64,000 nucleotides of DNA from Escherichia coli (GTDB taxonomy: Bacteria; Pseudomonadota; Gammaproteobacteria; Enterobacterales; Enterobacteriaceae), in NCBI RefSeq assembly GCF_013315695.1, contig NZ_CP054353.1, one strand, 5' to 3'. Position numbers and translations under genes: made by a program. Each line of letters begins with the position of its first letter. Position 1 is the stretch's first letter. Shown in pieces: positions 1 through 44,929 of the stretch. A model generated the notes under the pieces. That model ran no database searches, had not been told where the DNA came from, and saw only the letters and a program-made list of their open reading frames with translations.

Positions 1-2911
1 AAGAGGGACGCCAGCGCAACAGGCCATCCGGCTGCACCTGCGGCAACCAGCCAGTTATCTGCACACCGTTGCAGGCGAGATCAATCTCCATACTCTGCCC
101 TGGCTGGCGACAGGCAATGACTCTGTCGGCAAGTTGCTGCATCTCCTGACACTGCGTTTCCCAGAAAATTTCACCAAAGGCACCATACGGCAAATCACCT
201 GCCGCCCGGAATCGGCGGAACAAGCGTTCGGCATCATCCTGCTCAACCAGTGCATTTAATAACTGCTGGTTGATTTGATAACGACTAAGCCCTTCAAGAA
301 TAAAAGGTTCGGTGTCGGGAATTTCGCTGTCTTCGGTACGGAAGTTCACCTGCAAACGCATCTGGAAAAACGCCCGCACCGGATGCGCCCAGAATCGTTG
401 TAGCGTCTCCAGCGGCACGGTTTCCGGCAAGGTAAACGGCAGCGGCTGAACAAATTCAGAATGTGCTTTACCAGCCTGGCTGGCCGCAGGTAGCCACTCG
501 CGCGCATAGCTTTGTCGTTCGCCTGGCTGGTAGTTTTGTGGATCAAACGGCATTCGGGTATGGAGGCAAGTAAGATGCGCTTTTACCCTTGCCTCGCTTT
601 CATCACAGTTGAGCGCTTCATCTCCCGGTAGATAATGGCTTTGCCCGATGTAGTCGATCAGTTCCTGCACCAGTACCGACGGGAAACGTTCACTGTTATC
701 CTGAATGGAACGCCCGATATAGCTGATATAGAGTTTTTGCTGCGCGGAAATTAACGCTTCCAGGAACAGATAGCGGTCATCATCGCGACGGCTACGGTCG
801 CCACGCTTCGGTTTCTGGCTCATCAGGTCAAAGCCCAATGGCGCAAGCTGGCGTGGATAAACGCCGTCGTTCATTCCCAGCAGGCAAACCACTTTGAATG
901 GGATGGAACGCATTGGCATCAGAGTACAAATGTTAACCGGTCCGGCGAGAAAACGCTGGCTGATACGTTCCTGATCCAGGCGCTGTGCCAGTTCATCACG
1001 CAATAGTGACAGCGGCACCGCGTCGCCATACTGTGCACCTAAACCTTCGGCGATAATCGCCTGCCATTGTTGTTCGATCAGCGTCATCGCCGCTTCGGTT
1101 TCCGCATCCGGCAGGAAGAAGGCGTTGAGCATATCGCGACAAACCGGCAACCACTCTTCCAGCGGACGCTCCTGCGCCAGCCCGCGACGCCAGATGTTTA
1201 GCTGCATTAGCAGTGAAGCCAGATGCCCCACCAGTTCTGCAATTAAGCCGCTCGATTCATCATAAGGTAGAACCGATTGCCACTCGCCCTGCGCGCTCTC
1301 CATCGCGTAGCCCAGCAACATGCGCGTCAGGCCAAACCGCCAAGTGTGTTGACCGGTAGCGGGGAGTTCCAGCTCGCGAACGTTGTCGTCATCTATCCCC
1401 CAACGAATTCCGGACTCGTTGACCCACTGGCGTAAATAACGCAGCCCTTCTTCGGTGATGTCAAACCGCGCCGCCAGCACCGGCACATCCAGTAATGCCA
1501 GAACGTCCTCCGACACAAAGCGGCTGTCTGGCAACGATAACAGGCTGATAAACGCTTCAAGTACAGGATGCGACTGCCGCGCCCGACGGTCGGAAATGGC
1601 GTAAGGTAGGTAACGATCCGCAGGTGCGCTACCAAACACAGCCTGAATAAACGGACTGTAGCTGTCGATGTCGGCCACCATCACAATGATGTCGCGCGGA
1701 GTAAGTGTCGGATCTTCCTCCAGCATCGCCAGCAGGCGATCGTGTAAAACTTCAACTTCACGCTGTGGGCTATGGCAAACGTGGAAGGTGATACTGCTAT
1801 CCAGTGGATCAAGCGGGCGTTTGTTATCGCTACGGGAAAACTCTTCGATGTTCACACCAGCAACGGCGCGGTTTTCCAGTTCCAGAATGTCAGACTGAAT
1901 GTTATGCAGCAGGTTATCTGGCGTCACATCGACAAAAGCGTCCAGCTCCTGGCTGCTCTCCAGATCAGAAAGGAGATAAATGTAGTCGCGTCCAAGCTTG
2001 CCCCATGAGGCCAGCAGCGGGTTGCCGACATCCTGTTCACCATCGCTGTTAAAGAGCTGCCCGGCATTTTCGCTGTCGCGAAATAACGATAATTCGCGAT
2101 CTTCAAAACTGTGTCGGCGCTGGCGAGTCAGCAGTTTCGCCAGATAAGCAGGATCTTTAATGTCGCCCCAGTAATAACGGCAGGGGTTGGTAAACAGGAG
2201 ATGGATTTCAATATGTTTACCCAGCGCCTGTAGCGCCTGGAGATAAACAGGCGGTAACGCGGAAATACCGCATATAAAGACGCGCGAAGGTAGCCCCGGC
2301 GGGCAGGTCGTCGCGGACTCCAGCGTTTCGATAAAGCGCTGATAGAGATTGGCGCGGTGCCAGCGCGGTTGCCCGAGTTGATGGGTATATTCCACCAACG
2401 CCTTCCACAACGGCGCTTGCCAGGCCTGTGCTTCTCCCAACCCTTCTACCAGATGTCCTGTTTCCCACTGTGCCAGCCAGTCCGGACGATAGACCAGATA
2501 CTGGTCAAACAGGTCCGCCGCTTTTGAAGAAAGCTGGAACAGTTTTCGCTTGTCGCTATCGTCAGTCAGATAATGCCGCAACAGGGTAAAGTCTTCGCGC
2601 TCCAACAGTTGCGGCAGCAGAGTCATCAGTTTCCAGCTCATGCTCTGTTTGTTAAAGGCGCTCTCTTTGGGGATCTCCGGTAACACCCGGACGAACATAT
2701 CCCAGATAAAGCTCGCTGGCAGCGGAAAATCAATGTTTGCCGCAATACCAAACTTTTGCGACAGGGTCATTTGCAGCCACTGCGCCATACCGGTACTTTG
2801 CACCAGAATCATTTCTGGTTCGAAAGGATCGTCCAGCCGTTCGCGTTCGACGATAAACTCCATCAACGCTTCCAGCACGTCCAGACGATTGGAATGGTAG
2901 ACCCTTAACAT
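1..2911 (-). CDS. recC: RecBCD exonuclease V gamma subunit RecC, N-terminal ~970 codons (3-prime end lies beyond window start)
   Basis: Continuous minus-strand reading frame from ATG at 2909-2911 (translation MLRVYHSNRLDVLEALMEF...) running off the window edge; not in the ORF track because no stop lies inside the window; matches recalled RecC N-terminus and K-12 synteny (recC-ppdC-ygdB-ppdB-ppdA-thyA). Confidence 0.85.
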   Translation of the reverse strand, partial: MLRVYHSNRLDVLEALMEFIVERERLDDPFEPEMILVQSTGMAQWLQMTLSQKFGIAANIDFPLPASFIWDMFVRVLPEIPKESAFNKQSMSWKLMTLLPQLLEREDFTLLRHYLTDDSDKRKLFQLSSKAADLFDQYLVYRPDWLAQWETGHLVEGLGEAQAWQAPLWKALVEYTHQLGQPRWHRANLYQRFIETLESATTCPPGLPSRVFICGISALPPVYLQALQALGKHIEIHLLFTNPCRYYWGDIKDPAYLAKLLTRQRRHSFEDRELSLFRDSENAGQLFNSDGEQDVGNPLLASWGKLGRDYIYLLSDLESSQELDAFVDVTPDNLLHNIQSDILELENRAVAGVNIEEFSRSDNKRPLDPLDSSITFHVCHSPQREVEVLHDRLLAMLEEDPTLTPRDIIVMVADIDSYSPFIQAVFGSAPADRYLPYAISDRRARQSHPVLEAFISLLSLPDSRFVSEDVLALLDVPVLAARFDITEEGLRYLRQWVNESGIRWGIDDDNVRELELPATGQHTWRFGLTRMLLGYAMESAQGEWQSVLPYDESSGLIAELVGHLASLLMQLNIWRRGLAQERPLEEWLPVCRDMLNAFFLPDAETEAAMTLIEQQWQAIIAEGLGAQYGDAVPLSLLRDELAQRLDQERISQRFLAGPVNICTLMPMRSIPFKVVCLLGMNDGVYPRQLAPLGFDLMSQKPKRGDRSRRDDDRYLFLEALISAQQKLYISYIGRSIQDNSERFPSVLVQELIDYIGQSHYLPGDEALNCDESEARVKAHLTCLHTRMPFDPQNYQPGERQSYAREWLPAASQAGKAHSEFVQPLPFTLPETVPLETLQRFWAHPVRAFFQMRLQVNFRTEDSEIPDTEPFILEGLSRYQINQQLLNALVEQDDAERLFRRFRAAGDLPYGAFGEIFWETQCQEMQQLADRVIACRQPGQSMEIDLACNGVQITGWLPQVQPDGLLRWRPS

Positions 2912-2923
2912 AGCGGCTCCTGA

Positions 2924-3247
2924 CTACTGACGATTCGGGCAATGCAGGCGGGTCATCTCGCCTTCTCTGCCCCCGGGTGAAACTAGCGTAACGCTGATGC
3001 TGACACATCCCGCCTGCGATGTCTGCATTCGGTTGACCTGCCAGTTAGCAGGTGGCGAAATCGCGCGCAGTTGCGTTTGCTGCCAGCCATACCGCCAGAG
3101 CTGTTGGTACTGGTTTCTGCTGGCAAGACTGTTCATTAATGTTCGCTGGAAACCCGATAACGCAGTGACAATCATCACCATCAACACCATCGCCAACATT
3201 ACCTCCGGCAGGCTAAAGCCTTGTTGATTCTTCAGGGAAGCTGACAT
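2924..3247 (-). CDS. ppdC: prepilin-like protein PpdC
   Basis: Track ORF 2924..3334 trimmed to internal Met ([24 protein letters not shown]...), giving 107 aa with a type IV prepilin-like N-terminus (GFSLPE motif); synteny. Confidence 0.8.
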
Positions 3248-8930: not shown

Positions 8931-9461
8931 TTAACCTCTTTTACGTCGATAAGCAGATGCGTTTTGTGGTTTTGGCGTATTTTCCTGCAGTGACATCACC
9001 ACACTCGCGAACTCTTTCATTACCCTACGGTAGACATCACGTTTAAATGACACCACCTGTCTGACCGGATACCAGTAACTTACCCATCGCCAGCCGTCAA
9101 ACTCTGGTGTACTGCTGGTTTGCATATTGATTTCTGCATCGCCGCTCACCAGCTGCAAGAGAAACCATTTTTGTTTTTGGCCGATACAAACCGGCTTCGT
9201 GTCCCAACGCACCAAACGTTTCGGTAATTTGTAGCGCAACCAGTTACGCGTTGAAGCAAGGATTCGAACGTCTTTACGGCTTAATCCTACTTCTTCAAAC
9301 AATTCACGGTACATCGCCTGCTCTGCGGATTCTCCGGGGTTGATTCCGCCTTGCGGAAATTGCCAGGAGTGCTGACCAAATCGCCGGGCCCACATTACCT
9401 GCCCCTGGCGATTACAAATCACGATACCTACGTTTGGGCGGTAGCCATCGTCATCAATCAC
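8931..9461 (-). CDS. rppH: RNA pyrophosphohydrolase (Nudix)
   Basis: 176-aa ORF with Nudix box ([22 protein letters not shown]); position upstream of ptsP. Confidence 0.95.
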
Positions 9462-9599
9462 CGGACTACCTCAAAATAAAGCTTTATATACGAATGATTG
9501 TTTCATACTCCAGGAAGACGGTAAACCACTCTCTGCAGGGCATTACACACTAATAACAATTGAATAACTCACAGTTATGTGCAGAGTTATAAACAGAGG

Positions 9600-9960
9600 A
9601 AGGGGTGGATAGCCGTTTTTATTCACCTTTTCTGTGGATAGAGTTGTGAAGAACTACGGAATTACTACGGGAAAACCCGGAGCATTCTGAATAAGCCCGA
9701 TATAGACATTTTAAAATATTCATTATTAGTCAATGCATTACATGTAATTTTAGTAATAAAAAAGAGTAATTCGTGACCCAGGTCACACCTCTCATTTACG
9801 GGTTGGCGAAAGATCAACCAATGCCGTATTTATCCACAGAATGTGCCACTAAGTTAAGCACTGAACCACTAAAAACTGGAGTTTCGTCGCACGTCAAGGC
9901 TGTAAATGGAAACAGTAGTGGAGGTTTTTCACAGTTATCCCAGCTTTCTGTGGATAACAT
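9600..9960. promoter_or_regulatory. DnaA-box cluster in the rppH-mutH intergenic region, consistent with DARS2 (DnaA-reactivating sequence 2)
   Basis: Perfect or near-perfect DnaA boxes (TTATCCACA consensus) read directly at about 9624-9632 (tgtggatag, minus orientation), 9830-9838 (ttatccaca), 9923-9931 (agttatccc, degenerate) and 9942-9950 (tgtggataa); DARS2 is described as lying between the rppH(ygdP) and mutH genes. Confidence 0.6.
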
Positions 9961-10145
9961 GGTGTAAGATCCTGTTTATTTTCAGTGACCAGATTTGGAA
10001 AACCCATTGCAGTGTTGCGCAACGCGATTACCGGCAACCTAAAAAGCAATATAAATCAGAGAATTGAACAACGCCTGTGGAAAAAGTTACACTGCGAATA
10101 TTCGGCACATAATTGCTGTTTGTTTTTTAACCAAGGTATCGTGAC

Positions 10146-10835
10146 ATGTCCCAACCTCGCCCACTGCTCTCTCCTCCCGAAACTGAAGAACAGTTGTTAG
10201 CGCAAGCACAGCAACTTTCTGGTTATACATTGGGAGAACTGGCGGCACTTGCCGGGCTGGTTACGCCAGAGAATTTAAAACGCGATAAGGGCTGGATTGG
10301 CGTGTTACTGGAGATCTGGCTAGGTGCCAGCGCAGGGAGTAAACCTGAGCAAGATTTTGCTGCTCTGGGCGTGGAACTTAAAACTATCCCTGTGGATAGT
10401 CTTGGTCGTCCGCTGGAAACAACATTCGTTTGTGTTGCCCCGTTAACGGGTAATAGCGGGGTGACCTGGGAAACCAGCCACGTGCGCCACAAGCTCAAAC
10501 GCGTACTGTGGATACCGGTTGAAGGCGAGCGCAGCATCCCGCTGGCGCAGCGTCGCGTAGGATCACCGTTACTGTGGAGCCCGAATGAAGAGGAAGACCG
10601 GCAACTGTGCGAAGACTGGGAAGAATTAATGGATATGATTGTTCTCGGTCAGGTTGAGCGGATCACCGCTCGTCACGGGGAATATTTACAGATACGACCG
10701 AAAGCAGCGAATGCGAAAGCGCTTACCGAAGCCATTGGTGCCCGGGGCGAACGGATTCTGACGCTGCCACGCGGCTTTTATTTGAAGAAGAATTTCACCA
10801 GTGCACTACTGGCCCGTCATTTTCTGATCCAGTAG
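10146..10835 (+). CDS. mutH: methyl-directed mismatch repair endonuclease MutH
   Basis: 229-aa ORF; sequence and position match MutH. Confidence 0.95.
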
Positions 10836-16585: not shown

Positions 16586-16673
16586 AAAAAAAACCTGCGC
16601 ATCCGCGCAGGTTGGTGCAAGAGACAGGGTACGAAGAGCGTACCGAATAATCTCACCAATCAATACCTCTGGG
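16586..16673 (-). ncRNA. omrA: OmrA small regulatory RNA (Hfq-dependent, OmpR-regulated)
   Basis: Reverse complement reads cccagaggtattgattggtgagattattcggtacgctcttcgtaccctgtctcttgcaccaacctgcgcggatgcgcaggtttttttt, matching the recalled OmrA sequence with its terminator hairpin and U-tract; located between aas and galR. Confidence 0.9.
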
Positions 16674-16787
16674 ATCTTGATTGTGGTCTGCACAACGACT
16701 CTTCGCCAGCGAGAAAACGCAAAGGAATGAAGGGAAATGCAACGAGGTGTGTAAATTGTCGGTTACTGTTACAGATTGATGACCGGC

Positions 16788-16870
16788 AAAAAAAAACCTG
16801 CGCATCTGCGCAGGCTGGTGTAATTCATGTGCTCAACCCGAAGTTGACTTCACCTATCAATACCTCTGGG
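16788..16870 (-). ncRNA. omrB: OmrB small regulatory RNA
   Basis: Reverse complement cccagaggtattgataggtgaagtcaacttcgggttgagcacatgaattacaccagcctgcgcagatgcgcaggttttttttt; shares 5-prime and 3-prime ends with OmrA, tandem arrangement. Confidence 0.9.
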
Positions 16871-44855: not shown

Positions 44856-44929
44856 GCGGGCGTAGTTCAATGGTAGAACGAGAGCTTCCCAAGCTCTATA
44901 CGAGGGTTCGATTCCCTTCGCCCGCTCCA
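44856..44929 (+). tRNA. glyU: tRNA-Gly (anticodon CCC)
   Basis: 74-nt cloverleaf gcgggcgtagttcaatggtagaacgagagcttcccaagctctatacgagggttcgattcccttcgcccgctcca; anticodon loop ttCCCaa; 3-prime CCA encoded. Confidence 0.95.

Follow-up and report, generated by a model that had tools for sequence, protein, structure and literature searches.

The window analysed here, a 64,000-nucleotide stretch of Escherichia coli DNA, contains a 684-bp spacer between two divergent genes. On its left is rppH (also known as ygpD or nudH; 8931-9461, minus strand), a 176-aa ORF that maps to K-12 b2830, and on its right is mutH (10146-10835, plus strand), a 229-aa ORF that maps to K-12 b2831. Between them lies a cluster of DnaA boxes that is almost certainly DARS2 (DnaA-reactivating sequence 2), the non-coding chromosomal element of E. 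coli that turns ADP-DnaA back into initiation-competent ATP-DnaA. This identification is correct, and no observation speaks against it, but the element is already known, reportedly having been described originally by Fujimitsu in 2009, and by itself the finding adds nothing new. Recognising DARS2 nonetheless matters for annotation of the window, because it is the main device by which E. coli raises ATP-DnaA before each round of replication. The rppH-mutH spacer is found in 5424 of 5426 complete E. coli genomes, with a median of one copy per genome, and that of strain MSB1_4I is 100% identical to the window. The offset relative to MG1655 is constant, such that position x of the window is MG1655 x+2,959,516 (position x-6483 of the extracted K-12 locus).

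DnaA boxes and published sites of DARS2

Exact copies of the DnaA box TTATCCACA are located at 9830-9838 (plus strand) and 9949-9957 (minus strand), and are accompanied by CTATCCACA at 9633-9641 (minus strand) and by TTTTTCACA at 9925-9933 (plus strand), which fits the relaxed consensus TTWTNCACA. There are nine TTWTNCACA matches in the 64-kb window, four of them inside the 255 bp between 9830 and 10084, and the segment 9596-10050 holds seven sites with no more than one mismatch from TTATNCACA. This density is above chance, as none of 200 dinucleotide-preserving shuffles equalled either of two box counts over 455 bp (4 observed with a shuffle maximum of 2, and 8 observed with a shuffle maximum of 6). 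The cluster of at least four DnaA-box matches in both orientations reported in the preliminary description is thus real. A further box fitting the relaxed consensus, TTTTCCACA (10076-10084, minus strand), lies just beyond the published DARS2 and directly upstream of the mutH promoter region, and positions 10075 and 10077, which flank this box, vary between strains. The only other exact TTATCCACA in the window is at 36196-36204 (plus strand).

The published reagents for DARS2 were placed by exact string search of the primers and oligonucleotides in Table S1 of Kasho 2014 (PMC4245941; MutH-2, -4, -11, -14, -15 and -17, and Ksh-30 to -35) and in the supplement of Miyoshi 2021 (PMC8682772; the FBS2-5 oligonucleotide), together with the deletion arms of Frimodt-Moller 2015 (PMC4585315). 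Twenty of the 23 primers, arms and oligonucleotides map exactly at the constant offset, and each of the three that fail spans a strain SNP (9727 or 9758). The 455-bp DARS2, whose ends are given by primers MutH-4 and MutH-2 (Kasho 2014), occupies 9596-10050 (MG1655 2,969,112-2,969,566; plus strand), within the rppH(ygpD)-mutH intergenic region. The placement of DARS2 in this spacer, which had been put forward as established knowledge, is therefore correct base for base: the published coordinates map here rather than elsewhere, and the boxes are those bound experimentally. The span of 9600-9960 given earlier omits the last 90 bp of the element. The minimal DARS2 (the pOA67 insert, or 'delta-Right', from MutH-4 to MutH-11) corresponds to 9596-9828 (plus strand), and on a plasmid is sufficient for over-initiation (Kasho 2014, PMC4245941).

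The core of the element, removed by the deletion made with MutH-14 and MutH-15 (9619-9653), consists of three DnaA boxes. Box I (TTATTCACC, 9619-9627, plus strand) is head-to-head with box II (CTATCCACA, 9633-9641, minus strand, with one mismatch) across a 5-bp spacer, and box II is head-to-tail with box III (TTCTTCACA, 9645-9653, minus strand) across 3 bp. The core thus has the 9-5-9-3-9 arrangement of the DARS family, reading TTATTCACC-TTTTC-TGTGGATAG-AGT-TGTGAAGAA; both this geometry and the single mismatch in box II of DARS2 were described by Sugiyama 2019. To the right of the core are box IV (TTATTCAGA, 9686-9694, minus strand; the segment substituted with Ksh-30 and Ksh-31) and two IHF-binding sites 3 bp apart, IBS1 (9712-9724) and IBS2 (9728-9740), each one mismatch from WATCAANNNNTTR and each identical to K-12. 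A PciI site at 9740-9745, used in Kasho 2025, abuts or overlaps IBS2 as published.

The IHF sites lie between the core and the Fis sites. FBS1 (GAGTAATTCGTGACC, 9764-9778) is a perfect consensus match, identified by comparison of FIS-1U with FISsub-5U, and is dispensable in assays. The FBS2-3 segment (9805-9829, with FBS2 at 9805-9819 and FBS3 at about 9812-9826; the FBS2 sequence is from the supplement of Miyoshi 2021, PMC8682772) is identical to K-12 and adjoins box V (TTATCCACA, 9830-9838, plus strand; Ksh-32 and Ksh-33); it contains the essential 21-mer, delimited by MutH-17/-11 and MutH-24/-25 at 9808/9-9828/9. Three low-affinity boxes placed by the substitutions of Miyoshi 2021 (PMC8682772) flank box V, namely V-c (9809-9817), V-b (9820-9828) and V-a (9841-9849), and all are present within a segment identical to the published FBS2-5 oligonucleotide (9800-9851; Miyoshi 2021, PMC8682772). 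The right part of the element contains box VI (TGTGGATAA, or TTATCCACA on the minus strand; 9949-9957; Ksh-34 and Ksh-35) and FBS6 (10006-10020), which reads ATTGCAGTGTTGCGC in the window and GTTGCAGTGTTGCGC in K-12 (Miyoshi 2021 supplement, PMC8682772). Consensus scans for IHF and Fis, which the preliminary description had in view as a check, do recover IBS1-2 and FBS1 but have little power: with up to one mismatch allowed, there are 1.3 matches per kb for IHF and 12.5 for Fis, a background high enough that such scans are weak evidence on their own.

A closely spaced head-to-head pair at 9923-9950 had also been singled out. A convergent pair does exist here, formed by 9925-9933 (plus strand) and 9949-9957 (minus strand) with a 15-bp gap, but the left member is not conserved in other genera and the pair is not decisive; the conserved partner of box VI is instead TTATCCCAG at 9935-9943, separated from it by 5 bp, and the decisive head-to-head pair is that of boxes I and II at 9619-9641.

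DnaA reactivation at DARS2

The mechanism of DARS2 has been demonstrated experimentally for the K-12 element (Kasho 2014, PMC4245941; Sugiyama 2019; Miyoshi 2021, PMC8682772; Kasho 2025), and the sites that it uses are all identical in the window and in K-12. Because the window's copy matches the tested element in sequence, we infer that it has the same biochemical activity. ADP-DnaA would bind to the core boxes, with boxes I and II opposed across 5 bp so that the AAA+ domains of their protomers could meet head-to-head, and box III, 3 bp further on, would add a head-to-tail protomer that stabilises the complex. In K-12 the head-to-head contact between the box I and box II protomers is made via Gln208 and goes with release of ADP, and box III is stabilising (Sugiyama 2019). 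IHF at IBS1-2 would bend the DNA sharply and so bring Fis at FBS2-3, about 190 bp from the core, to the core complex; K-12 DARS2 needs both proteins at these sites and is sensitive to their positions and phasing (Kasho 2014, PMC4245941), IHF binding is made more stable by supercoiling, and Fis seems to make contact with DnaA (Kasho 2025). The protomers on boxes I and II would then release ADP, and apo-DnaA would depart and bind ATP. As ATP-DnaA accumulates, it would oligomerise, starting at box V and extending over V-a, V-b and V-c, and displace Fis, a negative feedback expected to switch the element off; such displacement of Fis by oligomerisation on V-a/b/c is reported by Miyoshi 2021 (PMC8682772).

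Conservation and the right half of the element

Compared with K-12, the locus and the length of DARS2 are the same, there are no indels, and all of the named sites are at the same places. There are seven differences in the 684-bp spacer, four of which are SNPs within the 455-bp DARS2: 9727 C>T, which falls between IBS1 and IBS2, 9758 G>A, 10006 G>A, which changes the first base of FBS6, and 10024 T>G. None is in any box, in either IBS, or in FBS1-5, and the first base of FBS6 is the only position of a named site that departs from K-12. The first three recur in other natural isolates, and 10024 T>G is present in none of the six other strains compared. The A at 10006, which replaces the first consensus G of FBS6 in K-12, is also present in strains ARS-C301 and 2013C-4225; the change at this position is one of the three in the subFBS6 mutant of Miyoshi 2021 (PMC8682772), and FBS6 is dispensable in the published work.

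Among seven diverse E. coli strains there are 18 variable columns within DARS2, none of them in boxes I-VI, IBS1-2 or FBS1 and only one, in a single strain, in the essential 21-mer, in agreement with a survey of 59 genomes (Frimodt-Moller 2015, PMC4585315). We also note that one complete E. coli genome, NZ_CP084026.1, carries a 1329-bp insertion of the ISVsa5/IS10 type (positions 1676-3004 of the extracted locus) within IBS2, at the equivalent of window positions 9734-9742, with a 9-bp target duplication (TGCATTACA). With the core thus parted from FBS2-3, the insertion presumably makes this genome a natural knock-out of DARS2.

When one genome of each species was scanned for the core pattern TTATNCAC-N6-TGTGGATA-N4-TGTG, at least 120 loci were returned. 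Five of the matches listed fall in the rppH-mutH spacer (of Enterobacter, Pantoea, Serratia, Yersinia and Photorhabdus), and 11 are upstream of uvrB, which is the position of DARS1. With Salmonella and two Klebsiella species added from records mislabelled 'plasmid', nine genera could be aligned, and several features of the element are evident. First, the core, FBS2-3, box V and box VI show little or no variation; mean identity to E. coli is 0.90 for the core, 1.00 for box V, which is invariant, and 0.73 for FBS2-3, in which an AAAGATC block is conserved. Box I is nearly invariant, as is box II apart from its last base (9641), which varies between G and T, and the CA and TA of IBS2 are invariant. 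Secondly, in each of the six genera measured, the core-to-box-V distance comes to exactly 211 bp. Thirdly, box IV (0.54), FBS1 (0.52) and FBS6 (0.31) are not conserved, in line with their reported dispensability in experiments. The sequence identity, placement, architecture, conservation and spacing of DARS2 are all direct observations of the present analysis.

The best-conserved sequences without a name are in the right half. The first, 9893-9916 (GTCAAGGCTGTAAAT..AAACAGT; mean identity 0.92 over the nine genera), is invariant and holds a CTGT-N8-ACAG motif (9900-9915) and, on the minus strand, a -35-like TTGACG (9897-9892). The second, 9935-9980 (mean identity 0.89), is likewise described as invariant and holds TTATCCCAG (9935-9943), box VI (9949-9957) and GGTGTAAGATCCTGTT (9961-9976, with a GATC at 9968-9971). 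The right-half blocks are 63, 105 and 131 bp from box V in the six genera measured, with one base less in Yersinia. Two more invariant blocks, 9564-9574 and 9585-9595, lie just to the left of the published DARS2; in each of the six genera measured they are upstream of the core by 54 and 34 bp. Neither right-half block, nor those on the left, has a named function in the DARS2 literature examined, and a literature search with the invariant block sequences found nothing.

Part of the second block forms another 9-5-9-3-9 arrangement at 9935-9969, TTATCCCAG-CTTTC-TGTGGATAA-CAT-GGTGTAAGA, in which the middle box is box VI. It is nearly invariant across genera, with changes in a single genus at two box bases, while the nearby TTTTTCACA (9925-9933) is not conserved. 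The CTGT-N8-ACAG motif of the first block is part of an SOS-box-like sequence, GGCTGTAAATGGAAACAGTA (9898-9917), that matches 14 of 20 positions in a crude count against the LexA SOS-box consensus; this is the best score in the window, the next being 12/20, and the genuine uvrB box scores 15/20. Its CTG-N10-CAG is kept in all six genera, and no literature supporting LexA at this locus was found. In addition, a CRP site, CGTGACCCAGGTCACA, at 9772-9787 overlaps FBS1 inside the minimal DARS2 and is outside the published DARS2 model. It is listed in Table 1 of a 2026 Footprint-seq preprint (PMC12871828) as a novel high-affinity site, 'rppH / mutH', with an estimated Kd of 2.7 nM in vitro and no link to DARS2. 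The site is conserved in Enterobacteriaceae (Salmonella, Klebsiella and Enterobacter), and its left half-site is kept in Serratia and Yersinia. The DARS2 literature examined mentions neither CRP nor LexA, and a search for literature linking either protein to DARS2 or mutH returned nothing relevant except the Footprint-seq table.

The conserved right half and left blocks, the second core-like arrangement, the SOS-like motif and the CRP site on FBS1 raise the possibility that DARS2 is larger than the minimal element and receives more inputs, as a regulatory module of the chromosomal context coupling DnaA reactivation to carbon status (through cAMP-CRP), to DNA damage (through LexA) or to through-transcription; we consider this possible, though rather unlikely. 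The timing of IHF loading onto DARS2 and its removal is a question posed in reviews, and the conserved blocks, the CRP site and the possible LexA site are places to look.

Several of the same features could be read another way, with the boxes serving mainly as operators through which DnaA controls divergent transcription of rppH-ptsP and mutH. RNA polymerase genomic SELEX (Shimada 2014) puts promoters in the spacer, and the same study predicts for rppH-ptsP a sigma-70 promoter, TTGACG-18-TTTAGT, that falls at 9897-9868 on the minus strand, in the right half, with box VI and the invariant blocks just upstream of it; the CRP site at 9772-9787 and the conservation of a right half that is dispensable for DARS2 activity on plasmids also count in favour of this reading. 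Although the -35 of the predicted promoter is part of an invariant block, conservation of the -10 does not extend beyond Escherichia and Klebsiella. Moreover, published experiments show that deletion of the core and substitution of the IBS and FBS sites alter the ATP-DnaA level and initiation, that ADP release can be reconstituted with purified proteins, and that IHF binds to DARS2 with rifampicin-resistant dynamics. As an account of the cluster, control of the neighbouring genes is thus improbable, and at most it could be an additional role of the right half.

Some further observations concern transcription in the spacer. A transcript from the predicted rppH-ptsP promoter would run through box V, FBS2-3, IBS1-2 and the core. 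Shimada 2014 also predicts a mutH promoter, TCGGCA-18-TTTAAT, which maps to 10102-10131 on the plus strand; the -10 is TTTAAC in the window strain and in four of the six other E. coli strains, and TTTAAT in K-12. A scan with a sigma-70 pattern found one promoter-like site, near mutH (10086-10113), and none in the conserved blocks.

The only RefSeq annotation between rppH and mutH is ygdT, a 48-aa ORF (9814-9960, minus strand) wholly within DARS2, and its presence in annotated E. coli genomes is the one point in favour of the conservation reflecting a small protein gene (ygdT, or the ORFs at 9773-9967 and 9985-10200) or a small RNA, with the boxes incidental. We regard this as very improbable. 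None of the five spacer ORFs (these three and two more) has a Pfam or NCBIfam match above the cut-off, and outside Escherichia all five are disrupted by loss of the start codon, by stop codons or by frameshifts, with the DNA blocks themselves remaining invariant; ygdT itself loses its start codon or gains in-frame stops in Enterobacter, Pantoea, Serratia, Yersinia and Photorhabdus, and is probably an annotation artefact or an ORF restricted to Escherichia. The conservation takes the form of invariant blocks at fixed spacing, without codon periodicity. At gathering thresholds, Rfam reports only OmrA/OmrB and one tRNA in the whole window, and a permissive scan of 9400-10200 gave only chance-level matches. 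An RNA reading of 9880-9990 was dropped, as consensus folding of both strands across six genera revealed no compensatory base-pair changes. Taken together, the lack of family matches, the broken ORFs, and the absence of Rfam matches and of covariation argue that conservation is at the level of DNA sites. The two ORFs at 9773-9967 and 9985-10200, which are absent from RefSeq K-12, are accordingly probably not genes, as had been supposed at the outset, and the earlier description of the DNA as otherwise non-coding is fair, ygdT being annotated but not conserved as an ORF. A search of the literature for ygdT yielded mainly 'YGDT' motifs of polymerases, which are unrelated. Elsewhere in the window are the OmrA and OmrB small RNAs (16586-16870, minus strand) and a tRNA-Gly(CCC) (44856-44929, plus strand).

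Related DnaA-box clusters

DARS2 shares with DARS1, located in the bioD-uvrB spacer (core at MG1655 813,107-813,141), an identical 9-5-9-3-9 three-box core, which in DARS1 reads TTATCCACT-ATTCC-TGTGGATAA-CCA-TGTGTATTA. However, DARS1 is about 100 bp long, with a perfect box II, and needs no cofactors, whereas box II of DARS2 carries one mismatch and the element depends on IHF and Fis bound 60-190 bp away from its core. With oriC, DARS2 has in common IHF and Fis sites and a mixture of DnaA boxes of high and low affinity, and the head-to-tail ATP-DnaA oligomers on the boxes flanking box V resemble those on the low-affinity arrays of oriC; in contrast to oriC, no duplex-unwinding element or 13-mers were seen in it, and its published activity is to release the nucleotide of DnaA rather than to unwind DNA. 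For these two reasons an origin-like reading was set aside.

The likeness to datA is of the same general kind, in that both are non-coding DnaA-box clusters with an IHF site, essential in each case, and a cell-cycle-timed influence on DnaA's nucleotide state. datA stimulates DnaA to hydrolyse its bound ATP, without a head-to-head core or a requirement for Fis, and has the opposite effect on initiation. That the window's cluster is such a site, titrating DnaA or promoting ATP hydrolysis and thereby lowering initiation potential, has next to no chance of being right in spite of the shared boxes and IHF site, since extra copies lead to over-initiation and deletion lowers ATP-DnaA, the reverse of datA, the head-to-head core is common to DARS1 and not to datA, the locus (datA is next to glyV-X-Y/queG) and the box layout differ, and the idea has already been refuted for the K-12 sequence.

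The core pattern is also found well beyond the two DARS loci. Only 16 of the 121 matches listed are beside uvrB or rppH/mutH, and most of those listed are in Gamma- and Betaproteobacteria outside Enterobacterales; examples are L024 6309-6343, and L059 2219-2253 and 4870-4904. Among the matches listed, the positions left unspecified in the pattern follow the DnaA-box consensus, and those in Pseudomonas have a 35-mer that is identical or nearly so across species. In 12 listed Pseudomonas loci for which the retrieved sequence takes in both neighbouring genes, the site has a syntenic position, with a DUF1232 gene on one side and an FKBP isomerase gene on the other, and five further listed loci (four in Pseudomonas and one in Stutzerimonas) have the DUF1232 gene only. 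Legionella nagasakiensis has eight copies of the DARS-core pattern among the matches listed.
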